64,000 nt of DNA from Myxococcota bacterium. GTDB taxonomy: Bacteria > Myxococcota_A > Polyangia > Polyangiales > Houyiibacteriaceae. Shown here one piece after another: positions 10,562-39,102 of this stretch. The notes beneath the pieces are model-generated. The model did not search any database. It worked only from the letters and a program-made list of their open reading frames with translations, and had not been told where the DNA came from. Position 1 is the first letter of the stretch, and every line of letters starts with the position of its first letter. Location: contig JAHDCI010000001.1 in the NCBI GenBank assembly GCA_020629955.1, positions 11,646 to 75,645 of the forward strand, written 5' to 3'. Position numbers and translations under genes: made by a program.

Positions 10562-11695
10562 CTATCGAGCGAAGGTCATCCGGAATTCGAGGGTTCGCGG
10601 CGGAGGCGGAGGAAGACGCCAGCCTCGGCTCCGCTGCGTCAAACAATTCGCGATGCCAGAATCCCCGGTCGTGTTTCGCGCGGGCCGCGCCGACGCGATG
10701 CGGCCATCCTCATGGAGAACAAACGCCATCACAATACTTCCACTGAGACCGGGAACGCGCGCGTCCGCTTGATCGAAACAAGTCTGAACGTCGCCCACAT
10801 AGCGAGTCGCCACCAGGCGGCGCGCGGAGCTCGCATACATCACTCCCGTCTGTGACGAGCCGACGCCGCCAGCAGGGGGCACGGTCGGTGCCGGCGGAGG
10901 TTCACTCGTCGGCTCCGGTGCGGGGCGCCCTTGCCAAGGGGGAGGAGGCGCGCTCGGCTCGGGTGCGGGGCGCTGAGCCGGCTGCAGCGGGGGAGAAGGT
11001 TCGACCCCTTGGGGCCGCGTGGGTCGTGGGCTCACCTGCCGCCGGGAAGTCATTCGCGTGGGGCGCATGGAAGAGACCCGTGGCTCCTGAATTTCCGTGG
11101 GGGAAGGCTCCTGAACATCCTCCGAAGATGTATCGTCAGCGCCCGGCGGAACCACTCCTTCGGGCAGGACCGATTGCTCTTCTCTTGCTGGGAGTTCGTG
11201 CATCGCTTCATGTTCTGCCGCCGGCGCGATCTCGCCGATCATCACCGGCGCCCCAGGCTCCGCATTCCCCACGACCCTAGGTTCGGCCTCCGAGAGAAAC
11301 CACATTCCGGCGGCACCAAGCGCGACGAGCCCCGCCGCGGCGAGGCCCATCCACGTGTAGACCTTTTTCGCACTCGTAATGCCTGCCATCGCCATCGTGC
11401 GATTGCCGACAGCACGCGACGAACGAACGGCGACCATCTGCTGAGACATCCTCGCGGCACGCGCAGGATCCGCGAACTCCTCGACCGGCCCAATCCCCAA
11501 GGGTGAGGGCTGAGGCCGTATCGTTTTGGTATGCGCGATGAGTCCGCTCCCGCACTGTCCACAAAAGCGCGCGTAGCCAGGATTCTCCGTGCCGCAACAA
11601 TCACATCTCACGCCTGTTATCATGCCCGTCTTTGAACGCCCCGTCACTACAGGTGTCCCGCGGCCGCCGCGTTGCCCTTCAGCCCAGTTCCTCAT
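10562..11695 (-). CDS. Zinc-ribbon / TM / Pro-rich / TonB-C-like (AgmX/PglI C-terminal domain) envelope protein, GltJ/AgmX-like architecture
   Basis: It has an N-terminal CDCCGTENPGYARFCGQCG zinc ribbon, one TM helix (WMGLAAAGLVALGAAGMWFL), a Pro-rich spacer, and a C-terminal two-Cys domain (VQTCF...GSIVMAFVLHEDGRI...IANCL...WRLPPPP). The start is ambiguous: the ATG at 11695 has GAGGAA-N9 upstream, and the alternative ATG is at 11623. Confidence 0.75.
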   Translation of the reverse strand: MRNWAEGQRGGRGTPVVTGRSKTGMITGVRCDCCGTENPGYARFCGQCGSGLIAHTKTIRPQPSPLGIGPVEEFADPARAARMSQQMVAVRSSRAVGNRTMAMAGITSAKKVYTWMGLAAAGLVALGAAGMWFLSEAEPRVVGNAEPGAPVMIGEIAPAAEHEAMHELPAREEQSVLPEGVVPPGADDTSSEDVQEPSPTEIQEPRVSSMRPTRMTSRRQVSPRPTRPQGVEPSPPLQPAQRPAPEPSAPPPPWQGRPAPEPTSEPPPAPTVPPAGGVGSSQTGVMYASSARRLVATRYVGDVQTCFDQADARVPGLSGSIVMAFVLHEDGRIASARPARNTTGDSGIANCLTQRSRGWRLPPPPPRTLEFRMTFAR

Positions 11696-11769
11696 CGAGG
11701 GCAGTTCCTCATCGAGGGCAGTTCCTCATCGAGGGCAGTTCCTCATCGAGGGCAGCTCCTCATCGAGCG
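11685..11769. repeat. 17-bp tandem repeat x5 (CAGTTCCTCATCGAGGG; the last unit is degenerate)
   Basis: Direct reading shows units starting at 11685, 11702, 11719, 11736 and 11753. Each unit contains the small inverted repeat CCTC-ATC-GAGG. Confidence 0.9.
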
Positions 11770-11840
11770 CGGTTCTCATCCAGCCCACGTTCTGATCCAG
11801 CGGGGCTTCGCGTCCTCGTGCTATTCTGTCCCCACTTGAG

Positions 11841-12662
11841 ATGGGATGGTCGAGTACAGCGAAGTGGCCGAGTCGAGGGTCCGAAGACGGTCCCTTTCGA
11901 TCGGACGGGCTGATCGCAGAAACGAAGCGATTCCGGCCAGTCCGCGCCGGAGGAAGCGGTTACTTTAAACCCACTCGGATTGCACTCTCAGAGCGCTGTC
12001 TATTTGCCGAAGTCCAGAACGAAATCCGCATGGTCGAGCGCCACCGCGTGAGCGGGTTCGCAACGCATCGGGGCTTCGTCTGGATTGCAATCACGGATGC
12101 AGAGTTCCTGCTAGTTCCCGCGCGATCCACCAAGCGATTTCAGAAGGCCTTAGGCCAGCCGAGTGAGGCGTCCAATACCGAGCCCGCCGGCGCAATCTGG
12201 ATTCTACTCGGATTGCTTGCGATGGCCGGAGGCGTGGCGTGGAGAATCTTCGCGGACACTCAAGGCCTCGGGTCGGCGATCGCCCAGTTGCTACTCTGCC
12301 TAAGTCTTCCGATCGCCCTGCTCTTTCAACCCCGGTGGTCAAGCTATTCGAGATGGGGCGTGCTGTCCTATCGAGGAATCCTCCGTGGGGACCCGCTCGC
12401 GATCCCTCGCTCGGAGATACGAAGCATCACGCAACAAGCGGAGGTCGACCGAGTAAACGTGCCGATTTACCTCGTCAAAACGAAGCAGGGGCAGACCGTT
12501 CTCGGACTCGGAACCCGCAAAGACCTCCTCGATCCAAGTCTCGAAACACTGGGAGAAAAGGCGGCAAAGGTTCTGGATGTCCCCTTCACGCCCTCGTTCT
12601 CCCCGCGCCCCGATCCCCCGTCGAACGTTCACCGCGACATCCACACCGACATCCATCGGTGA
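11841..12662 (+). CDS. Hypothetical membrane protein (two central TM helices)
   Basis: The long ORF has coding-like composition. The TM segments are AGAIWILLGLLAMAGGVAWRIF and AIAQLLLCLSLPIALLF. I recognised no motif, and the start is uncertain. Confidence 0.5.
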   Translation: MGWSSTAKWPSRGSEDGPFRSDGLIAETKRFRPVRAGGSGYFKPTRIALSERCLFAEVQNEIRMVERHRVSGFATHRGFVWIAITDAEFLLVPARSTKRFQKALGQPSEASNTEPAGAIWILLGLLAMAGGVAWRIFADTQGLGSAIAQLLLCLSLPIALLFQPRWSSYSRWGVLSYRGILRGDPLAIPRSEIRSITQQAEVDRVNVPIYLVKTKQGQTVLGLGTRKDLLDPSLETLGEKAAKVLDVPFTPSFSPRPDPPSNVHRDIHTDIHR

Positions 12663-29203: not shown

Positions 29204-29453
29204 CAGGATTCGCGCCCTCGCACAATCCTTCGCAATCGCAAGGAAAGTTCTCTTCGCTCACATCCGGCCTGCATTCTCGCTCAGACAACTTCCCTTACGT
29301 TTGCGAAATCTTGCACGACCATCACGAGGCTCCGGATGAAGAAGACTGCTTATCTCTGGCGAAGCTTCAAACGCCCAAAAACAACTTCGCGATTTTTTTC
29401 CGTGCGCACCCCAATTATCCAGCGGCTTCACAGATGGGAACGTTTGGATGCGA

Positions 29454-29609
29454 GCAGGGTGGTGAAAAAGGGCCGATGTTGGTTCGTTGGATTCTTCGTG
29501 CCCAGATGCATCCGATTTTCGGAACGTGACGGGAACTGGGTGGCGCTGGATGGCGTTTGAGTGGGTGAAAATACCGCGAAGCGGTTTCGGACGTTTTTCA
29601 CCAGCCTGC
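29454..29609 (-). mobile_element. MITE-like TIR element, copy 2 (156 bp, inverted orientation)
   Basis: Its reverse complement aligns with copies 1 and 3. The first 63 nt differ from copy 1 at 3 positions, the central 35 nt or so are divergent, and the TIRs match 20/24. Confidence 0.6.
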
Positions 29610-29616
29610 CAGACGC

Positions 29617-29648
29617 AAAAACGCGCTGGTTCCAAGGAACCAACGCGT
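29617..29648 (-). terminator. Rho-independent terminator of rplC
   Basis: On the minus strand, a 13-bp stem with one mismatch (ACGCGTTGGTTCC / GGAACCAGCGCGT) is followed by TTTTT. It lies 23 nt after the rplC stop. Confidence 0.65.
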
Positions 29649-29670
29649 TGAATGGTTGCTCGCTGGTGGT

Positions 29671-30330
29671 TTAAGCGTTGGCCTTCTTGGCCTTCTTCGC
29701 CGCCTGGCGAATCGTGACGACGCCGCCGCGCGGTCCGGGGACGCTGCCCTTCACCATCACGATGCCTTCTTCGTCCATGACCTTGACGACCTTCAAGCTC
29801 ATCACGGTGACGCGCTTGTTGCCGTGCTGGCCGGCCATCTTCTTGCCCTTGAAAACACGACCGGGCGTCATGTTCATACCGATGGAGCCGCCGTGACGCT
29901 GGTACTCGTGCGCACCGTGCGTGGCCTTGTAGCCGGCAAAGTTGTGGCGCTTCATGACACCGGTGAAGCCGCGACCCTTCGAGGTGGCGCAGACGTCAAC
30001 GAAACCGCCTTCTTCGAAGATCTCGCTCGCCTTCAGCTGCTGACCGACTTCGTACCCGTCGACCTTCTCGGCCGGGAGGCGGAACTCACGAACAACTTCC
30101 GGGACGCCCGCTTCAACGTGGGAGAACTGACCGGCGACGGGACGCGTCGTGGTCTTCTTCACACCGAATCCAAGCTGGATCGCGGAGTAGCCGTGCTTCG
30201 CGACGGTGCGCTTGCCGACGACGGTGCAGGGGCCCGCTTCGACCACGGTGACGCGACGAATCTCGCCGTCGTCCGTGAAAACCTGGGTGTTGCCGACTTT
30301 TTTGCCGATGAGTCCGAGTGACGTGTTCAC
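29671..30330 (-). CDS. rplC: 50S ribosomal protein L3
   Basis: The translation GLIGKKVGNTQVF...TSKGRGFTGVMKRHNF...GSIG.N.TPGRVFKGKKMAGQHGNKRVTV is a canonical full-length L3. Confidence 0.95.
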   Translation of the reverse strand: MNTSLGLIGKKVGNTQVFTDDGEIRRVTVVEAGPCTVVGKRTVAKHGYSAIQLGFGVKKTTTRPVAGQFSHVEAGVPEVVREFRLPAEKVDGYEVGQQLKASEIFEEGGFVDVCATSKGRGFTGVMKRHNFAGYKATHGAHEYQRHGGSIGMNMTPGRVFKGKKMAGQHGNKRVTVMSLKVVKVMDEEGIVMVKGSVPGPRGGVVTIRQAAKKAKKANA

Positions 30331-30465
30331 TGGGGTACTTCCTGTGTTCGAAGACTTCGAAGTAAAATAAGAACTTCTTAGTGTTTTTTTGGTCCTAATG
30401 ACCGCGCCATCTGGCTCTCCCAGATCGACGAAAGGGTGCGTAGGGTATTGAGGATTGGGCCGCGG

Positions 30466-31266
30466 TCAAGCCGATTCTTCGATTCCAAAGATTCGGCATG
30501 CGTTCGCGTACGTCTGGGCGCGCAATTCTTCAGGATCTTCGCCGCGCAGCTTTGCGACGAAATCCGCGGTGTGCGCGACAAACGCGGGTTCGTTCCGTTT
30601 TCCGCGAAGCGGCATCGGGGCAAGATAGGGCGCGTCGGTCTCGACAAGAATGGAATCCGCCGGCTGCTTTCGCGCCGCCTCCTGAATCGATTCGGATTTC
30701 TTAAACGTCACGATTCCAGAAAAACTCGCCACAAAGCCGAGATCCAGAGCCGCCTTTGCGAACTCGGGGTCCTCGGAGAAGCAGTGGATAATCCCGCCAA
30801 CGTCGCGCGCGTTTTCCTCGCGAAGAATTTCGAGGGTATCTGCCGCCGCATCTCGGGTGTGCACAATGATCGGCTTCTTGACGTCGCGCGCGAGCGCGAT
30901 CTGGCGCCGGAAGACTTCCTTCTGCTGCTCGCGTGGGCTGTTGTCGTAATAAAAATCGAGCCCCATCTCGCCGATGGCCACGCAGAGCGGGTGCTCCGCA
31001 ATCTCCTCGATGCGCGCGTAGATCGCTTCGCCATCTTCCTCGGTGAGCGTCTCGGCGTCATGCGGGTGAAAACCGATCGTGGTGCAAATCCAGTCCGCAT
31101 TGGCTTCGGCAATCTTCAGCGCCGAATCCACCGAATCGAGATATCGCGCGCAGCCGATGGTCGCGATGCGCTTCACGCCCGCTTCTTTCGCGCGCCCGAG
31201 CAACTCGTCGAGGTCGTCGTCTTTGAACTTGCGATGGTCGAGGTGGCAGTGGGTATCGAAAAGCAT
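30466..31266 (-). CDS. tatD: TatD-family metal-dependent hydrolase/DNase
   Basis: The internal ATG gives MLFDTHCHLDH. Later motifs are AIGEMGLDFYY, PIIVHTRDA, GIIHCFSE and LVETDAPYLAP. Confidence 0.9.
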   Translation of the reverse strand: MLFDTHCHLDHRKFKDDDLDELLGRAKEAGVKRIATIGCARYLDSVDSALKIAEANADWICTTIGFHPHDAETLTEEDGEAIYARIEEIAEHPLCVAIGEMGLDFYYDNSPREQQKEVFRRQIALARDVKKPIIVHTRDAAADTLEILREENARDVGGIIHCFSEDPEFAKAALDLGFVASFSGIVTFKKSESIQEAARKQPADSILVETDAPYLAPMPLRGKRNEPAFVAHTADFVAKLRGEDPEELRAQTYANACRIFGIEESA

Positions 31267-31291
31267 GATGTCTATTTTTCCAGGCGGGCGT

Positions 31292-32314
31292 TTAGACCGC
31301 GTATCCCTTTTGCTTGAGTCGCTCGAGCGCGGATGCCGCGCCAGGTTCCACCTCGGCGATAGAAGCAAGCGTCTCCGCGAGCAATCGCGGGTCCGCCCCT
31401 CGCAAACGTTCACACAAACGGGCCAGCGCAGGCAGGAGCGCGACTCGCTGATACTCACCTGCCGCAGCGATCGCATAATCGCGACCATCGGCACGCCACG
31501 CTTTTAGCGCAGCGTTCAACGGTTCATCGCCTCGGGCGTCCCCAAGCTGCACCAGCGCCCGGCCACATGCCGCGCGAACGAGCAGAGAACCGAAGAACTT
31601 CGAGCCGCGATCGTAGAGCGCAGCTTTGCCGCGATCGCTCGCGACGCGTCCGAGAGCCTCCGCGGCTTCGATCGCCAAGAGTGGATGCGAGAGCCCGCGA
31701 ATCAGGCGAACTTCGCCTGCGTTATTTCCGAAGTAGGAGAGCGCAATCGCGGCGGCATTTGCGACCTCTTCATTTCCATCGGTCAGAGCTTTCTTGAGCC
31801 CCGTGACAATCGCATCTTTTTCGCCAGCCGTCTCGTGGTGCGCGAGTGCGAGACCATCGGCCGCAGCCGCTCGGACCCGGCCATCTTCATCCCGAAGCAA
31901 TTTGAGCAGCGCTTTCGCGTCGACGCTTTCTTCCTGGCGCCAGAGATCGGCCGCTTGAAAACGAAGCACAAAATCGTCGCTCGCAGCGAGCTCTGAGAGC
32001 ACGTCCGGACGCTTGCCTTCCGAGAGAGCGTAGAGCGCCCGCGCGGCCGATTGACGGACCTCCGCGTGCTCGTCGCTCAGTCCCTCCCGAACGAACGCCG
32101 GCACCCCGACCAGCGCCAAGCCTTCAAATGCCGCAGCTCGAATGGGACCGAGGCGATCTTTGGCGAGGGCTTCTAATCCGGCCCGCGCTTCTTCCTCGCG
32201 CCCTTCGGGTACCGCCGCGAGACCGTGCGCAGCGCGCAGACGAAAGTTCTCATCCTTGGAGGTGACATCCCGCAGCGCGGCGTCGAAGTTCGGAGTGAGC
32301 GGCCGAAAGAACAC
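31292..32314 (-). CDS. HEAT-repeat (PBS-lyase-type) protein
   Basis: Repeated helical-hairpin motifs with the (V/I)R..AA.AL pattern run throughout: RLRAAHGLA, IRAAAFEGLA, VRQSAARALY, VRAAAADGLA. Confidence 0.75.
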   Translation of the reverse strand: MFFRPLTPNFDAALRDVTSKDENFRLRAAHGLAAVPEGREEEARAGLEALAKDRLGPIRAAAFEGLALVGVPAFVREGLSDEHAEVRQSAARALYALSEGKRPDVLSELAASDDFVLRFQAADLWRQEESVDAKALLKLLRDEDGRVRAAAADGLALAHHETAGEKDAIVTGLKKALTDGNEEVANAAAIALSYFGNNAGEVRLIRGLSHPLLAIEAAEALGRVASDRGKAALYDRGSKFFGSLLVRAACGRALVQLGDARGDEPLNAALKAWRADGRDYAIAAAGEYQRVALLPALARLCERLRGADPRLLAETLASIAEVEPGAASALERLKQKGYAV

Positions 32315-32355
32315 CCTATTCTTTGGCGAGCGGGCGTCCGAAATGCAAGGAGAGT

Positions 32356-32865
32356 TCAGAAGGTATTCGGCGGACGCGTGACCAGCTCACAGATCGCGAT
32401 GAAGTCTTCCCGGTTAATAAGATTCACCTCGTCCAATCGCTCGGAGAGCGCCTGCAGCAGCGCTTGCAGATCCGCGCTTGCGATATGGTCATTGGGGCAG
32501 AGACGCACCGTGTCGCGCCCGGCGGTCTCCACGATGTACACCAAGTGCTCATCGTAAGAGCGATCGATCTCGCAACGTACCAGCGGGAAGTAGAGCTCTG
32601 TATCCCGCGCGCTCGGGAATGAGAGCGCTTCGCCTCGAATGACAATGCTACGCCTCGAAGCTGGGAAGTCCCGGAGGTATTTGTAAACGAGCCCGATGCC
32701 GCCAATCGCGAAGAGGGAGCCAAAACACACCCCGGCACCCTGGCCACCCGCGATCATGAAGCCGCCGACACAAACGAGAGGGACGAAACAGCCTGTCGGC
32801 ACTATCCACGACGGGCGCAGCACGTACGCTCGGGGCTCCGGCTCCGCTTGCAGATCTGAACTCAA
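32356..32865 (-). CDS. Small two-TM protein with a cytoplasmic domain of about 100 aa, paralog P1 (unknown family; C-terminus ...ICELVTRPPNTF)
   Basis: It has a TTG start. Two N-terminal TM helices are followed by a soluble domain. It is paralogous to 32957..33460 and, more distantly, to 33457..33999. Confidence 0.65.
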   Translation of the reverse strand: MSSDLQAEPEPRAYVLRPSWIVPTGCFVPLVCVGGFMIAGGQGAGVCFGSLFAIGGIGLVYKYLRDFPASRRSIVIRGEALSFPSARDTELYFPLVRCEIDRSYDEHLVYIVETAGRDTVRLCPNDHIASADLQALLQALSERLDEVNLINREDFIAICELVTRPPNTF

Positions 32866-32956
32866 AACGTCTGGAACCTTTCAGAGAGTCGGAGAGAACG
32901 CACGAAAGAACGCCCTTTCTCCTTTGCCGAGCGGGCGCCCGTAGCGCAAGGAGAGT

Positions 32957-33460
32957 TCAGAAGGTATTCGGCGGACGCGTGACCAGCTCGCAGATCGCGA
33001 CGAAGTCTTCCCGAGTAATGAATCGCTCCTCTTCGATGCGCCGTTCCATCCGCGTCAGGAGTTCCTTCAAACGTGACCGCGCCATGGTGGAGTTCGGCGT
33101 AATCGAAACTTGCTGGCGGCCGGCGGTTTCGATGACGAACTGAAACCCAGAATCTCCGGCGTAGCGCTCACATCCAACGAAGGGAAAGTAGAGCTCGACG
33201 CCCTCTGCCCCAGGCAACGATGCCGATATCTCCGAGACAACGATCCTTCGCTTTCGCGGGAGGTATTCCGACACGAAGCGGAAAGTGAGATACGCCCCGC
33301 AGAGCAGAGCCGGTCCCGCAAAGCAGAGAATGCCTTCCGCGAACCAGGCCAAAAACACAGAGGCCGCGATCAGGCCGAAGGTGACAAACGCCGGCAATGT
33401 CCACGACGAGCGCAGGACATACGTTCGGGTCGCTTCTTCTTTGGAAACATCTGAACTCAA
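32957..33460 (-). CDS. Small two-TM protein, paralog P2 (C-terminus ...ICELVTRPPNTF)
   Basis: Its TTG start overlaps the TGA stop of P3 (TTGA). It has the same architecture as P1. Confidence 0.65.
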   Translation of the reverse strand: MSSDVSKEEATRTYVLRSSWTLPAFVTFGLIAASVFLAWFAEGILCFAGPALLCGAYLTFRFVSEYLPRKRRIVVSEISASLPGAEGVELYFPFVGCERYAGDSGFQFVIETAGRQQVSITPNSTMARSRLKELLTRMERRIEEERFITREDFVAICELVTRPPNTF

Positions 33461-33999
33461 AACGTCTGTGGCCTTTTCGAAAGCCGCGACTCGAGGATCC
33501 CTTTGACGGCATCGTAGTCGAGCGCCTCTCCGCTATCGAAGAACGCCTGCAGCTCCGCGAAGATTCCCCGTAGCGAGTGACAGGTCGAACTAGCGGAGAC
33601 CTCCGCTTCTCCGACGGGTCCCGTCATGAGAATGGTCTTGCGGGTTCCAAAGCCTTCGACTTCGATGCTCTTGATCGGGAGGGAAATCGACGCGTTAACC
33701 TCCTTCGGAAACTCAAGCGCCTTTTCGGTAAGTCTCACCTCCCGCTCTCTCGGGAGCGATCGATAAAGCCCCATCATGGCGAAGTGAGCGCCGGAGATCG
33801 CGAGCGGGAGCGATGCGATTAGCAGCGCGGCACTCCAAGGCATTGCAAGGTCGCGCACATCCCAGAAGCCCCAACCCACCAACGGCAAAATGGCGAGACC
33901 TGAGAGGCAAATACGGTCGAGCGGCAGAGGGAGTAAAAACGTCTTCGCCTTCGCCGCTCTCTTCGGCATCTCCCCCTTCGTCGCGTCCCCTCCTCGCAT
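33457..33999 (-). CDS. Small two/three-TM protein, distant paralog P3 (C-terminus ...SKRPQTF)
   Basis: It has the same size class, N-terminal TM helices, and a C-terminal RP-x-TF end. It is translationally coupled to P2. Confidence 0.6.
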   Translation of the reverse strand: MRGGDATKGEMPKRAAKAKTFLLPLPLDRICLSGLAILPLVGWGFWDVRDLAMPWSAALLIASLPLAISGAHFAMMGLYRSLPREREVRLTEKALEFPKEVNASISLPIKSIEVEGFGTRKTILMTGPVGEAEVSASSTCHSLRGIFAELQAFFDSGEALDYDAVKGILESRLSKRPQTF

Positions 34000-34044
34000 T
34001 CCGACAACCTAAATTCCGCCCCGAGGAGGGCAAGAAAAATCGCG

Positions 34045-34845
34045 CTACTCTTCGGCCGGTCCGATCGACCAATGAAGGCTGCGGCTTCGAAGGAGCCCCA
34101 GGCTGACCTCGTACGCGAGGTCTACGGGCGGCAGCGTCTCGAGCTCGAGCCCATCAAACGCGCGCGCAGGATGGCGCGTGACGATCACCTCCGAAGCGAA
34201 AGGCAAAAGCGCGTCGTTCCACGCGCCCACTGGCAGCGGCCTGACATCCGTCACGCCAAGCGGATGCTCTGCTTCGAAGGGAATACGTTCGTCGCTGCCG
34301 GGCAGCTGGTACCAGCCACGCAGGCTCGCCACCGTCTGATCGCGCCCTGTGCCGTGCACGCTGAAGAGCTCGCAATAGCGCGCACGTAGCGCGATGGACT
34401 GCCCTCGAAGGTGCAGCTCCTCGCTAAGGAGCTCGTCGAAATCTTCGGGCTCACTCACCGAGATATCGTGGTCATACGCGCTCCCGTGGGCATAGGCGCG
34501 TCCTGGCAAGAGCGACGTGATGACGGTTCGGAGCCCTTGCGAGATCGCATCGTTCGCTTGCCCGTGCTCTTGCTCTTCCTCCAGCTCTTCCTCGAGCGTG
34601 TCTTCGCAAGGCACCAGCTCGACCGAAGTCGTCCGAAACCAAAACGACTCAAGCCCGACGACGTATCCAAGGTCCGTCGTGAAGACCCGCACGCCCTCTT
34701 CGAGGTGCGCGCCTTCCCAATCGGTTTCGACCCAGTATTCGATCTGATTTGGCGCAAGCTCCGGCAAGGGGAGCGCCGCGCAGCCCACGACAAACGCCGC
34801 GCTCAGCCAACCCGAACGTCGTCCGCGGCGCATAGTCGAAGGCAT
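34045..34845 (-). CDS. Hypothetical lipoprotein (third gene of the lipoprotein operon)
   Basis: The internal ATG gives MPSTMRRGRRSGWLSAAFVVGC AALP (lipobox). It starts 13 nt after the upstream gene's stop. It has an acidic EEELEEEQEH patch, and I recognised no domain. Confidence 0.55.
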   Translation of the reverse strand: MPSTMRRGRRSGWLSAAFVVGCAALPLPELAPNQIEYWVETDWEGAHLEEGVRVFTTDLGYVVGLESFWFRTTSVELVPCEDTLEEELEEEQEHGQANDAISQGLRTVITSLLPGRAYAHGSAYDHDISVSEPEDFDELLSEELHLRGQSIALRARYCELFSVHGTGRDQTVASLRGWYQLPGSDERIPFEAEHPLGVTDVRPLPVGAWNDALLPFASEVIVTRHPARAFDGLELETLPPVDLAYEVSLGLLRSRSLHWSIGPAEE

Positions 34846-34858
34846 ACGCAACGAATCG

Positions 34859-36427
34859 CTAGGGACGAGGCGGTCGCCCGCCACCTCCGCCAGCCTCGAG
34901 GTAGATATAGGTATTGTCCCGCGCGGTCTCGGAGGGAGCATCCCGGAAACAGCTGTTCACGTACGGGAACGTCGGCGTGCCGACGTAGACATAGCCATCC
35001 GCGGTCTCCACGCCGTTGCAGCGATCGAGGTAGACATACCCCGAGTCTTCGAGCGCATCGTCGTGGTCTCGGAACGCATGCGAGCACCAACTATAGTCCG
35101 GGGTCACGCAGCGATTGGATAGGGTTACCGAGTCGCCGTCCTCAACCAACAAGGGGTGACAGTGGAGGCGGCAGAGTCCGCCATCAGGGCAGCAATCGCC
35201 GGCGTCTTCGCACTCCATCAACTCCCGGCCGAAGTAGCTCGCGCTCACCGTCGCGGAGTCGACATTGGGAAGCTCACTCTCGTCATCGGACCAACGAGCG
35301 AGGCCCGCGTAGACATAGCCCGAACGAGCCCGTCGAAGATCCGTACACGAGCCATCGTCCGCACGCGCCATGCAAAGACAGGTGCCGCGCATCGGATGAC
35401 CGTCATAGGACCAGCCGACGATATCCGACTCGCTCTCGCAATCCGCTTCATCGAGGTCTTCCACCACGAACGCGGTCGCACCCGTCGCATAACCGTTCGC
35501 CGGGGCGCCGTTTTCATCTTGCTCGAGGCAAACCTCGTTGATCCAGTGGTTGTGCGTGATCGCCGCCGGGTGCGTGCCGCAATAATCGACAAAAAGTGTA
35601 TCCGGGTCGGCGTAAGACCAGAAGAGCGGAGAACCGTAGGGGTCGGGGCGCGCCTCTTCGCAGGGAGCGAAGGCGGGAACGCCCGTGATCAACCCGGCGG
35701 TCTGCCCATAGCAATGGATCTTCGTGTAGACATGCTCGCCATCCGTAATGTGGTGAAGGCCCGTATTCGCGGAACCATCCTCGGTCTCGTACCAGCAGTG
35801 CGAGAAGGGAGGCATCGTCGGTGTCTCGTGCGTAACCGCCATGTTCAGCGCGCTATCGCAGCCATTGATGCCCTCAAATGAATCCGCTGCGGTGCTCTGA
35901 TCGATCGGCGCCGGCGAAAGCGGAATGCGATGCACGATCGGCGTGTCGGCCGTTTCAAAAATCGGGGCTGCCTGCGGCGAATAGTGCGGAAGCGCGTTCG
36001 AAGCGATGTAGGCGTAGTCGGCATCGCAAAGAACCTCGACGCACGGCGTCGCACCATCGCTCCCGTCGGCCGCGATGGTGCCAGCGACCACGATGCCCTC
36101 AAAGTTCATCAGCGACTCTTCGATCGCGAGTCCTTCTGGGCTCGTGCAGCGCTGAAGTGAATCGAGCGAGACATCCGGGTACATCGTCTCGAGAAGGGTC
36201 CAACCCGAACAATTGTCCGTGGAGGGCGGACTGGTATCGGGGTCTGCGTCGAGGTCGCTTGCATCCTGTTCAGGCGCATCGACGCCGCTATCGACGGCAG
36301 CATCGGAGCCCATATCGTCGTCTCCGCATGCGGCCAAGAGGATCGCCGCCAGGAGGCAGGCAAGGCTGCACCAAAAAACATCGTGAAGCGCGCCGTAGGT
36401 CTCTCCCGAGAAGTCATCGTTTTCCAT
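34859..36427 (-). CDS. Cys-rich lipoprotein with a YHYH-domain-like pattern (conserved His replaced)
   Basis: A strong GAAGGAGGA RBS lies 5 nt upstream of the ATG at 36427. The lipobox is LLAAC GDDD. SNALPHYSPQAAPIF...IPLSPAP and DRCNGVETADGYVYVGTPTFPYVNSCF resemble the YHYH family layout as I recall it. Confidence 0.55.
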   Translation of the reverse strand: MENDDFSGETYGALHDVFWCSLACLLAAILLAACGDDDMGSDAAVDSGVDAPEQDASDLDADPDTSPPSTDNCSGWTLLETMYPDVSLDSLQRCTSPEGLAIEESLMNFEGIVVAGTIAADGSDGATPCVEVLCDADYAYIASNALPHYSPQAAPIFETADTPIVHRIPLSPAPIDQSTAADSFEGINGCDSALNMAVTHETPTMPPFSHCWYETEDGSANTGLHHITDGEHVYTKIHCYGQTAGLITGVPAFAPCEEARPDPYGSPLFWSYADPDTLFVDYCGTHPAAITHNHWINEVCLEQDENGAPANGYATGATAFVVEDLDEADCESESDIVGWSYDGHPMRGTCLCMARADDGSCTDLRRARSGYVYAGLARWSDDESELPNVDSATVSASYFGRELMECEDAGDCCPDGGLCRLHCHPLLVEDGDSVTLSNRCVTPDYSWCSHAFRDHDDALEDSGYVYLDRCNGVETADGYVYVGTPTFPYVNSCFRDAPSETARDNTYIYLEAGGGGGRPPRP

Positions 36428-36438
36428 CACGTCCTCCT

Positions 36439-37203
36439 TCACTCGACGGTGATGCGGCAAAGCACGGTGTTATGAGTCTGCAGATTCGCCCCCCAAATGA
36501 ACTCGGCGTCGGGGTCCCAGGTGATATCGTCGTAGCCTTGTTTCGGGTCCACAGCGGCTGCGCTAAAGACGCTTGCCATCGGCCAGCTCGAGTCATCGAA
36601 GTCCATGGCGCGCCAGCCAGCGGGCTCCTCGCTGATCGTCGCCTCACACGTCTCTTCCGGATTTGCATCGTCTTCGCACTCAACGTTGAGCGGGGCTTCG
36701 TGAATCGTGAGACAGCGCCAATCTGCGCTCGAAAGGAGGACCCGTTCGCCGGAGTCCGTATCGGTGATCTGCGCAATGTAGCCACCATCGCCCATCTGCT
36801 GACGCGCGGAACCGATGTACTCAAGCCCGGAGTCGTTCTCGATAAAGTCTTTCAACACAACGTTGACCTGAAAGGGCCGAGAAGCCTCGAACGTGAACGT
36901 CTCCGAGTTGAAGGAACGTTCGGTCGTGATCGGAACGCTGTCCTCCATCACGAGCGTTTCGCCAATGTACATGGAAGACCAGTTGTCCGCCCAGACTTCG
37001 CCTCGGTACGTCACGGTCTCGCTGGAACCACTATCTTCCTCCGGTGAAGCATCGGACATCGCCGCGTCTTCTTCGACAGCAGCATCACCCATCGCACTAT
37101 CCTCGCCTCCATCCGGGATCGAGGCGTCCAAATTTTCGTCGGGATCTGAGCAGCCAAAAGCCACCAGGCAGAGCGCGGCGAACCAAGCAAGTGTTCTTCT
37201 CAT
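36439..37203 (-). CDS. Hypothetical lipoprotein (first gene of the operon divergent from the ECF sigma gene)
   Basis: It starts MRRTLAWFAALCLVAFGC SDPDEN (signal plus lipobox) and continues with an acidic linker and a beta-rich C-terminal domain of unknown family. Confidence 0.6.
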   Translation of the reverse strand: MRRTLAWFAALCLVAFGCSDPDENLDASIPDGGEDSAMGDAAVEEDAAMSDASPEEDSGSSETVTYRGEVWADNWSSMYIGETLVMEDSVPITTERSFNSETFTFEASRPFQVNVVLKDFIENDSGLEYIGSARQQMGDGGYIAQITDTDSGERVLLSSADWRCLTIHEAPLNVECEDDANPEETCEATISEEPAGWRAMDFDDSSWPMASVFSAAAVDPKQGYDDITWDPDAEFIWGANLQTHNTVLCRITVE

Positions 37204-37357
37204 AGAAGACCGACAGCGCGGAAGAGCGAAGCGTTATGGAAAAATCAACAGGGCCGTCCATCGCTGCTACTCATCACGAACTCCGGAATTTCGAGGACGG
37301 TTCTAACGCTACGCGGAAGCCAGCTGTCATATTCTCGCGGCGACCTCGCCTCCCACT

Positions 37358-37939
37358 ATGAGCGATTCTATTCACCAAACGGACTCAACAAGCGCCAAGC
37401 CTCTCGCGGAAGTGGTCGAAGAGGCCACGCGAGGAGATCGGGCGGCGCGAGAAACGCTCGTGCGACGATACCTAAGGCCAGCATATTGCGTCGCGCTTTC
37501 GATCGTTCGGCGACCCGCCGATGCGGAAGATGTCGCGCAGGATTCGCTGATCAAAGCGTTGACCAAAATCGAGACATGCCGATCGCCCGAACGGTTCGAA
37601 GCGTGGTTGATGCAGATCGTTCGCAATCACTCTCGAAACTGGCTCGACCGCCGGCGACTCCGCGACGTCCCTCGATTCGAGGTGCACGAAATGGAACCTG
37701 CGCCAGGGGAAAAGACGAGCGCAAAAACGGACCGACTGACGCGTCAAAGACAGCTGAGCGAAGCGCTCGCGGGACTGAACGAAACCCAACGGGCCGTGGT
37801 GCTTTTGCATGACCTCGAGGGCTACACCCACCCCGAGATCGCAGACGCTCTCGAACTCTCTGTTGTAAACTCGCGTCAGTACCTCTTTGTCGCCCGCAGG
37901 CGACTTCGCGAGCATCTCGGAGAAGGGGGGAAGCGATGA
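37358..37939 (+). CDS. ECF-subfamily RNA polymerase sigma factor
   Basis: Region 2 is RRYLRPAYCVALSIVRRPADAEDVAQDSLIKA...WLMQIVRNHSRNWL. Region 4 is EALAGLNETQRAVVLLHDLEGYTHPEIADALELSVVNSRQYLFVARRRLRE. Confidence 0.9.
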   Translation: MSDSIHQTDSTSAKPLAEVVEEATRGDRAARETLVRRYLRPAYCVALSIVRRPADAEDVAQDSLIKALTKIETCRSPERFEAWLMQIVRNHSRNWLDRRRLRDVPRFEVHEMEPAPGEKTSAKTDRLTRQRQLSEALAGLNETQRAVVLLHDLEGYTHPEIADALELSVVNSRQYLFVARRRLREHLGEGGKR

Positions 37940-38526
37940 GCAACTCACCAAAAATCCCGGATATGCCAGAGCCCGTCGATCTTTCCGCGCTCGATCCCAC
38001 AAGCGACCCGATTGCGTGGGAAGAACGAATCGCTCAGATCGTGGATCCACCCCTCGATTTCGGCTCGCTCAATCCAACCGGCTCCGAAAACTGGGAAGCA
38101 GGCGTTCAAGGTGTGCTCGATGCCCTCGAGACCGAAGATGCTCTGCATCGCCTTCAAGGCTTCTCGGGCGAAACACTCGAGTCGGCAATCGGCCACATTC
38201 TCGATGCGAGCGCGGCGCCGAATGTCCCGGAAACGCGAGAGCATTTGGTCGCGCACCTGCCGATGGACCGGCAAACCAACGACGAGAGTGAGGACGCTCC
38301 AGCGACCATTGTCACGTTGGCCCCGAGAGCGCTGTCTTTCGCCGCGGCTCTCGCCGCAGCCGCGTGGCTGATTGTATGGGCAATCCCCCGGCAGCCGAGA
38401 GCAATCGCCGAGACCGATCCCGAGATGGCGGTGATGGAGTGGGCGGAAAGTGGAGATGCCTCGGGTTCCGACGCGCTCGAAGCGCTGGGTAGCTGGACGA
38501 CGCTCGACCAGGTGCAAGATGACTAA
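37936..38526 (+). CDS. Putative single-pass anti-sigma factor
   Basis: Its start overlaps the sigma gene's stop (ATGA). It has one TM helix (LSFAAALAAAAWLIVWAI). The call rests on position and topology only. Confidence 0.55.
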   Translation: MSNSPKIPDMPEPVDLSALDPTSDPIAWEERIAQIVDPPLDFGSLNPTGSENWEAGVQGVLDALETEDALHRLQGFSGETLESAIGHILDASAAPNVPETREHLVAHLPMDRQTNDESEDAPATIVTLAPRALSFAAALAAAAWLIVWAIPRQPRAIAETDPEMAVMEWAESGDASGSDALEALGSWTTLDQVQDD

Positions 38527-38986
38527 GCGAAGGCAGGTCGCACCGAGCCTCGTTTTGCTTGCAACGTTCGCCCTCGGTGGGCTCTTCGGTGCAGGCATCT
38601 CGCGTTTTGCCCAGCAGTCCGTGCACCGGGAGCCGCGCAGGGCGCGAAACCCGTTCCCCGTTCATGAGCTCGACCTCAGCGCCGAGCAGCGAGAACGGAT
38701 TCGCGAAATCATGGAATCACATCGACCGGAAGTGCAGGCGATCTTACGGGAAAGCCGCCCAGCCATCGAAGCGATCAACGAGCAGGTGCTGCGCGAGATC
38801 CGCGAGGTCCTCACCGATGCGCAATCTCGCGAGCTTGATCGCCTTCGCTCTCTGCGACCTCCTCCCGGACCACACGGGGGCCCGCCACCGCACGGCGGCC
38901 CACCACCGCACGGCGGCCCGCCACCGCACGGCGGCCCGCCACCGCACGGCGGCCCACCACCGCACGGCGGCCCGTCACCCTTCTGA
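38519..38986 (+). CDS. Periplasmic Spy/CpxP/ZraP-like (LTxxQ-type) protein with a C-terminal (HGGPPP)x6 tail
   Basis: The ATG at 38519 overlaps the anti-sigma stop. The signal anchor is VAPSLVLLATFALGGLFGAG. LSAEQRERIREIM and LTDAQSRELDRL are LTxxQ-like motifs. Six His-Gly-Gly-Pro-Pro-Pro units sit at the C-terminus. Confidence 0.7.
   Translation: MTKRRQVAPSLVLLATFALGGLFGAGISRFAQQSVHREPRRARNPFPVHELDLSAEQRERIREIMESHRPEVQAILRESRPAIEAINEQVLREIREVLTDAQSRELDRLRSLRPPPGPHGGPPPHGGPPPHGGPPPHGGPPPHGGPPPHGGPSPF
38873..38980 (+). repeat. 18-nt in-frame tandem repeat x6 (CACGGCGGCCCRCCACCG) encoding HGGPPP
   Basis: Direct reading shows units starting at 38873, 38891, 38909, 38927, 38945 and 38963. Confidence 0.9.
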
Positions 38987-39102
38987 AGATGTCGGGCGCC
39001 AAATACTTTTGCGAGTTTCGACCTAACACTTCTCGTAATGAAACAGTCTTCTTATCAAACATTGTTTAAGGAAGTCTTAAACAAGATAACGGAAGACTCA
39101 TC

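Follow-up and report, generated by a model that had tools for sequence, protein, structure and literature searches.

An orphan tandem family of predicted hairpin membrane proteins at a rearrangement junction in a Myxococcota genome

Within a 64,000-nt stretch of contig JAHDCI010000001.1 from a Myxococcota bacterium of the order Polyangiales (the whole stretch is referred to as the window), three consecutive minus-strand genes, here named P1, P2 and P3, very probably constitute a real orphan, i.e., taxonomically restricted, paralog family. The trio is confined to one locus and has neither a conserved neighbourhood nor a conserved partner. The explanation that we favour, with some reserve, is that of a coding orphan family which grew in tandem, later underwent gene conversion, lies at a rearrangement junction and encodes predicted inner-membrane hairpins; any specific functional reading of the three genes is doubtful. 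The original prediction, which had described tandem paralogs of an uncharacterized small membrane protein family, was correct in its observation and largely right in its structural reading. Overall, P1-P3 represent a well-documented orphan tandem gene family whose evolutionary anatomy is neat and ordinary in kind.

The gene array and its duplication scar

The three open reading frames (ORFs) were all reproduced in the ORF list with the previously claimed coordinates and start codons. P3 (33457..33999, minus strand, 180 aa) starts with ATG and ends in KRPQTF, and P2 (32957..33460, minus strand, 167 aa) and P1 (32356..32865, minus strand, 169 aa) both start with TTG and end in TRPPNTF. As described before, the stop codon of P3 and the start codon of P2 overlap in the 4-nt sequence TTGA (33457-33460). 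The window contains two copies, and no more, of the 20-nt junction CAGACGTTTTGAGTTCAGAT (33449-33468 and 32854-32873; chance expectation 0). The second copy is a fossil whose upstream frame now lies outside any gene; it contains the start codon of P1, which is separated from the end of P2 by a spacer of 91 nt (32866..32956, minus strand), again as stated earlier. Translational coupling, which had been proposed for the whole array, is upheld for P3/P2 by their stop-start overlap and not for P1, which has the 91-nt spacer ahead of it, no upstream gene to couple to and a weak upstream AAAGG.

The public annotation gives P2 and P3 the same lengths as our ORF calls (167 and 180 aa). For P1, it begins at Met37 (32757) and yields a protein of 133 aa, which thereby loses the first transmembrane (TM) helix. 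The N-terminal 23 residues of P1 are conserved in P2, which favours the TTG start at 32865 and hence a length of 169 aa. P3 features a second in-frame ATG at codon 11 (33969) with AAGGGGGAG ahead of it.

P1 and P2 are 40% identical end to end (E 1e-42). The similarity of P3 is far more distant, with BLASTP E values of 0.001 against P2 and 1.8 against P1, an hhalign E value of 0.0015 at a probability of 16%, and z scores of 2.0-5.7 in shuffle tests. P3 was the top non-self match of a hidden Markov model built from P1 and P2 alone, among ~8,445 ORFs from the window and 85 related loci. Moreover, it is similar in length to P1 and has its predicted elements arranged in the P1 order (two TM helices, 3-5 strands, two helices), carries the RPxxTF ending common to P1 and P2, and its gene is adjacent to P2. 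These similarities point to P3 as a probable old and distant paralog of P1 and P2; the claim of three paralogs of one architecture is consequently firm for the P1/P2 pair and probable for P3.

The suggested tandem duplication of a unit of about 600 bp was borne out by collinear direct repeats with a spacing of 595-601 nt. These comprise 32321-32440 versus 32922-33041 (D1, 84% identity), 38 nt in the N-terminal coding region (D2, 84% identity), the fossil of the P3 3' end at 32854-32891 versus 33449-33486 (D3, 82% identity) and the real 5' end of the downstream HEAT-repeat gene at 32290-32317 versus its fossil in the spacer at 32889-32916 (D5, 82% identity). The spacer between P2 and P1 is accordingly a composite. 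It combines a fossil P3 terminus of ~26 nt (32866-32891), which reads ..SERFQTF and a stop, a fossil HEAT beginning of ~28 nt (32889-32916), whose start codon is now GCG, and a duplicate of the 3' flank of a P gene (32922-32956). The parent copy of the latter is the 3' flank of P1 (32315..32355, minus strand), which reaches the GTG start of the HEAT gene. This composition is the signature of one tandem duplication extending from the interior of the P3 3' end to the interior of the HEAT 5' end. The P3 fossil had already been seen in the original prediction; the HEAT fossil is newly recognised and sets the second end of the duplicated unit. The copied segment included the 5' end of HEAT; hence, the ancestral P gene was already located beside HEAT when P1 and P2 arose.

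Base-by-base alignment of the P1 and P2 units with sliding identity revealed a mosaic. The junction and the first ~35 codons are 70-83% identical, the core of ~370 nt only about 43%, and the last ~21 codons with the adjoining flank 87-100%. Synonymous sites are saturated in the core (proportion of synonymous differences, pS, 0.7-0.8) and scarcely changed in the last 20 codons (pS 0.14); the non-coding fossils are about 80% identical. Within the 3' block, 44 nt at 32345-32388 (minus strand) are identical to 32946-32989, i.e., two exact copies where none are expected, spanning the final 11 codons with the stop and the following 11 nt of flank. Around this perfect repeat, the similarity extends to ~79 nt with 2 mismatches, and this longer tract probably results from recent gene conversion. 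Near-identical ends around a saturated core are best explained by an old duplication, the ends of which were later homogenised by gene conversion, and not by a single clean recent event.

The initiation region of the HEAT fossil (32895-32925, versus 32296-32330 in the functional gene) still contains a good AAGGAG Shine-Dalgarno sequence in front of the GCG codon. In the functional copy with its GTG start, the upstream signal is degraded to AAAGAATAGG. Within the fossil, CUCUCCUU past the P2 stop is able to pair with AAGGAGAA. RNA folds in the P2-P1 spacer did not exceed those of shuffled sequences (z +0.8) and Rfam returned nothing in this region, so RNA structure does not account for the conserved 3' block. 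An origin from a repetitive or mobile element was likewise dropped, since the window contains just two copies of each conserved block and no tRNA is located close by.

Predicted proteins, coding evidence and orphan status

Each P protein begins with ~20 charged residues, which are Lys/Arg-rich in P3, followed by two hydrophobic helices connected by a loop of 4-10 residues. Hydropathy segments cover residues 15-64 of P1, 15-63 of P2 and 20-48 plus 50-79 of P3. The TM hairpins comprise about aa 20-64 of P1 (32674-32808), about aa 20-62 of P2 (33275-33403) and about aa 21-79 of P3 (33763-33939), all on the minus strand. Arg and Lys residues are clustered before the first helix and after the second (in the latter place, e.g., LPRKRR in P2 and LPRERE in P3), and the loop is short and uncharged. 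By the positive-inside rule, both termini, and hence the C-terminal domain of ~105 aa, are predicted to lie on the cytoplasmic face. AlphaFold2 models were computed for P1 and P3 with the three paralogs as the only alignment input. At low confidence, the P1 model contains helices at residues 24-39 and 44-66, five strands within 80-122 and two further helices at 130-147 and 152-163, and the P3 model contains helices at 27-43 and 54-81, then strands and two helices.

Several features argue that these ORFs are coding. The GC content of P2 by codon position is 0.56/0.49/0.69 and third-position values across the ORFs are 0.69-0.72, which is typical of the genes of this genome. At 0.63-0.64, the codon-usage index falls inside the 0.60-0.80 spanned by secure window genes, and none of the other five frames scores as well as the annotated one. 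Between P1 and P2, identity by codon position is 0.54/0.63/0.44, with the second position being the most and the third the least conserved. Over the whole pair, 79 synonymous differences at 127 sites (pS 0.62) stand against 153 nonsynonymous differences at 374 sites (pN 0.41), i.e., pS exceeds pN with a z of about 4 according to our own arithmetic from the site counts. None of the three ORFs is interrupted, the locus has no competing long ORF, and P1 and P2 both retain the open frame, the hydrophobic hairpin and the motifs ELYFP, CE, ETAGR and REDFxAICE despite their synonymous saturation. We conclude from these sequence properties that P1-P3 are likely coding, or have been selected during most of their history.

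An exhaustive profile search (hmmsearch with the three-sequence alignment) of 1.84 billion cluster representatives, standing for about 15 billion proteins, retrieved the three P proteins themselves plus two long repeat proteins, and nothing else. The latter are artefacts, since the matches run through 7-13 short repeated stretches. P1, P2 and P3 form singleton clusters, all derived from one NCBI contig of 102 kb. In line with the earlier statement that no domain family was recognised, there was no match in Pfam (E<=1 for full proteins, E<=10 for soluble domains), NCBIfam, PADLOC or PHROGs, or among PDB sequences searched with the family profile. A word-index homolog search with P1 yielded only its own entry (annotated with 133 aa), and scans of genome, metagenome and viral contigs with patterns from the family alignment, as well as a degenerate DNA pattern for VTRPPNTF plus stop in metagenomes, gave no match. 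The search of plasmids and phages with P2 (tblastn) produced a single chance match to a BenE transporter (E 0.1), and relaxed tblastx and blastn comparisons of 32315-34044 with the rest of the window and the 85 loci returned noise only. With no member outside this locus in about 15 billion proteins, the wording "family" in the original prediction was overstated, and the survey of neighbourhoods and copy number among homologs that it proposed is impossible for the same reason.

A junction between two conserved blocks

As previously described, the P genes lie co-directionally between a three-lipoprotein operon and the genes for a HEAT-repeat protein and TatD. Upstream, the minus strand encodes three proteins that do not belong to the P family, namely the lipoprotein LipoA (36439-37203), a YHYH-domain lipoprotein (PF14240; 34859-36460) and the lipoprotein LipoC (34045-34833/34941), and their translations contain the lipoboxes AFGC, LAAC and VVGC. 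Divergently from this cassette, the plus strand carries the gene of an extracytoplasmic function (ECF) sigma factor (37358-37939; Sigma70_r2/r4_2/ECF) and, beside it, that of a candidate anti-sigma factor (37936-38526). Downstream of P1, the minus strand encodes the HEAT-repeat protein (31292-32314, GTG start), TatD (30466 to about 31266) and rplC (29671-30330), which are likewise outside the P family.

Relatives retrieved on the basis of TatD were Polyangiales/Sandaracinaceae-like metagenome-assembled genomes, none of them above 65% TatD identity, and the present genome is placed in their company. In these relatives, HEAT-TatD-rplC represents a conserved block with metG directly upstream; in locus L001, the metG stop overlaps the HEAT start. 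Neither metG nor holB is present in the 64-kb window. The absence of metG here and its retention in the relatives therefore indicate a rearrangement that split metG from HEAT-TatD-rplC, so that these three genes rely on whichever promoter is upstream of them now. The block compared extends over 29671-32314 in the window and 7006-11680 in L001. At its far end, rplC (L3) of the window is not followed by rplD, rplW or rplB, and the ORF after rplC in L001 is without a Pfam match. The 467 nt between rplC and a Ser/Thr kinase gene (29204-29670) contain no convincing ORF and gave no Rfam match.

The lipoA-YHYH-lipoC cassette is conserved as well among Sandaracinaceae-like genomes, namely in the five loci L081-L085, with the YHYH protein being 58-80% identical across loci. 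It is composed of a small lipoprotein, a YHYH-domain lipoprotein of ~500 aa and a lipoprotein of ~240 aa without known domain, and was located at 34045-38526 in the window, 6466-10723 in L081, 7799-10726 in L082, 4647-8425 in L083 and 1156-4040 in L085. Divergent ECF sigma/anti-sigma pairs accompany it in the window and in L081, where the sigma factor is 68% and the anti-sigma factor 31% identical to those of the window; the cassette may be an ECF-controlled envelope module. Past the candidate anti-sigma gene, both loci contain a small gene (38559-39026 in the window, 5960-6412 in L081; 52% identity over 73 aa by tblastx), and the sigma module may consist of three genes.

No P-like gene was found by tblastn after lipoC in any of the five cassette loci. 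What follows lipoC varies by locus and includes a convergent gene, a DUF4303 gene, a lipoA-like gene and an acyltransferase-like gene. In L082, the closest cassette-bearing contig (a Logan assembly), the place held by P3-P1 in the window is taken by two co-directional genes (10803-12424) for a DUF4303 protein of 177 aa and a protein of 351 aa without Pfam annotation. The link between the P genes and the lipoprotein operon, as drawn in the original prediction, is therefore not conserved. Synteny with L081 stops at 34048 and that of the HEAT block begins at about 32302-32314. The P array (32315-34044) exactly fills the rearrangement junction between two separately conserved blocks and is a member of neither.

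Competing explanations and known systems

In the account favoured here, each P protein would form a helical hairpin in the inner membrane, its N and C termini being cytoplasmic, and the C-terminal domain of ~105 aa (few strands, then two helices) would face the cytoplasm. The array would have grown by successive tandem duplications, of which the first separated P3, and the later one of ~600 bp, which took along the end of P3 and the beginning of HEAT, gave rise to P1 and P2. Gene conversion would then have homogenised the ends of these two units, and their cores would have diverged to synonymous saturation under purifying selection. Intergenic distances along lipoC-P3-P2-P1-HEAT are 45 nt, the overlap, 91 nt and 41 nt, and a scan for sigma-70-like promoters found none. 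Co-expression is suggested by the tight spacing together with the stop-start overlap of P3 and P2, and would probably involve a transcript beginning at the ECF-sigma-linked lipoprotein cassette; the overlap could further support stoichiometric synthesis of P3 and P2. The same features suggest that the paralogs might assemble into a hetero-oligomer that serves as a cytoplasmic scaffold anchored to the membrane and has an accessory role related to the envelope.

Several points weigh against this account. The coding status of P1-P3 is a prediction from the DNA sequence, the dN/dS of about 0.45 between P1 and P2 is imprecise because dS is saturated, and the TTG starts, which have no clear Shine-Dalgarno sequence, leave the start sites uncertain, most of all that of P1 behind its 91-nt spacer. 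The AlphaFold2 models are of low confidence (mean predicted local distance difference test scores of 48.7 and 45.4), and both the fold of the domain and any oligomer are therefore conjectural. With regard to a common transcript, the lipoC-P3 gap contains a weak terminator-like hairpin (34033-34016, minus strand), TTGCCCTCCTCGGGGCGG followed by AATTTAGGTT; the 16 terminator-like sites in the scanned region are not clearly above the 9.3 +/- 3.6 of shuffled sequences. Finally, the orphan status may partly reflect poor sampling of this genus, as the closest sequenced relatives are distant (at most 65% identity for TatD and 80% for the YHYH protein).

One alternative is that P1-P3 are functionless young proto-genes or decaying remnants, i.e., open DNA filling the junction, in which saturation and base composition would merely mimic constraint. 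The missing homologs in the searched collections, the position exactly at a synteny breakpoint, the TTG starts with weak ribosome-binding sites, the poor AlphaFold models and a codon-usage index that is low in the native range and barely above that of the antisense frame would all fit such an origin. However, three serial ORFs of 167-180 codons on the coding strand are unlikely to arise by chance (for the composition found here, we estimate ~3% stops per random codon), and P1 and P2 kept their frames, TM hairpin and shared motifs in spite of saturated synonymous divergence, with second codon positions conserved most. We regard this alternative as quite improbable. Another option, somewhat less remote and still unlikely, is that the P proteins are extremely divergent members of the bPH_2 family (PF03703, YdbS-like), acting in envelope stress, peptide resistance or peptide export, roles that have been put forward for YdbS/YdbT and DdE/DdF. 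YdbS, whose gene lies in tandem with that of YdbT, has a length of 159 aa and combines one PHb2 domain with two TM segments (PMC8657885). In Bacillus subtilis, ydbS-ydbT belongs to the ECF-dependent sigma-W regulon (PMC3498285), and the homologs DdE and DdF of Enterococcus faecalis are needed for the export of a leaderless bacteriocin (PMC8657885; PMC3498285). The P proteins match YdbS in size, in the two TM helices directly N-terminal to the domain (found by hydropathy in P1-P3 and in the AlphaFold2 models of P1 and P3) and in their tandem genes, and an ECF sigma gene is located just upstream of the operon here. In addition, the low-confidence models show strands and then a C-terminal helix, an "ETAG" motif occupies the same relative place as in a synthetic PF03703 consensus, and the soluble domain of P3 is collinear with this consensus (shuffle z 3.5-4.2). 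Yet, the z scores of P1 and P2 are only 1.2-2.8, and hhalign aligned just 9 columns around "ETAG" at a probability of 1.3%, the consensus being synthetic and not a real family alignment. This proxy scored 96.8 bits against PF03703 (gathering score 22 bits), so the Pfam scan was working, and it found no sequences in the PDB, the protein database, plasmids or local ORFs. The P proteins themselves lacked a Pfam match even at E<=10, Foldseek of the low-confidence models against the PDB gave nothing below E 0.39, and the exhaustive profile search drew in none of the very numerous bPH_2 proteins. The earlier suggestion of a PH-like protein is consequently not supported at the sequence level.

The array could also represent membrane immunity proteins against a membrane-acting toxin, made or received, e.g., a lipoprotein toxin exchanged between myxobacteria. 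Such a role would be in line with tandem diverged paralogs featuring conserved termini and a hyper-divergent core, placed directly downstream of three lipoprotein genes, two of which are without known domain. Nevertheless, when LipoA, LipoC, the YHYH protein and the HEAT protein were compared with Pfam, NCBIfam and PADLOC, the YHYH domain and HEAT repeats were the only matches, i.e., there was no toxin domain and no PADLOC match. In contrast to toxin-immunity pairs, the cassette is well conserved (58-80% for the YHYH protein) and present without P genes in five other loci. There are no homologs elsewhere that could display polymorphism, and age alone accounts for the divergence of the core, because its synonymous sites are saturated. 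With no toxin partner and no match in the defence and toxin profile libraries, the immunity-array suggestion of the original prediction appears extremely improbable. Hardly more plausible is a recombination-ready cassette system, in which conserved ends, including the perfect 44-nt repeat, surround hyper-divergent cores and permit expansion, contraction and core swapping, and which, after its origin at the rearrangement junction, would have been drawn into an envelope operon under ECF-sigma control. If this were true, a young family would have been caught while diversifying, which is what a function in immunity or as a receptor might call for.

Under the favoured reading of a coding orphan family, and provided that the genes are expressed, the locus would offer a clean, datable example of a lineage-specific membrane-protein family arising and expanding at a synteny breakpoint, in which the copied bases can be read precisely from the duplication scar. 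The small hairpin membrane proteins near ECF-sigma envelope modules would, moreover, be extended by a further unannotated family.

In comparison to known systems, the P proteins are like YdbS-type bPH_2 proteins in size, in having two N-terminal TM helices and a small cytoplasmic domain, predicted at low confidence to be rich in strands and to end in a helix, and in their tandem genes of one orientation. They differ in that a sequence relationship is undetectable, the P domain is longer (about 105 versus about 80 aa) and features a predicted second C-terminal helix and the conserved RPxxTF tail, and the host is a myxobacterium and not a Firmicute or Actinobacterium. With orphan immunity arrays of polymorphic toxin systems, the trio shares small tandem paralogs with conserved junctions and divergent cores; unlike in those arrays, there is neither an adjacent toxin nor a known immunity domain, and the neighbouring cassette is conserved and found without the array. 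A further comparison is with ORFan genes tandem-expanded at synteny breakpoints, which represent a descriptive class and not a functional family, and with which P1-P3 have in common the restriction to one lineage, the rearrangement junction, the short membrane proteins, the native base composition and paralogs homogenised by gene conversion. Unlike usual ORFans, however, the P genes provide better coding evidence, with two old paralogs that can be compared with each other.

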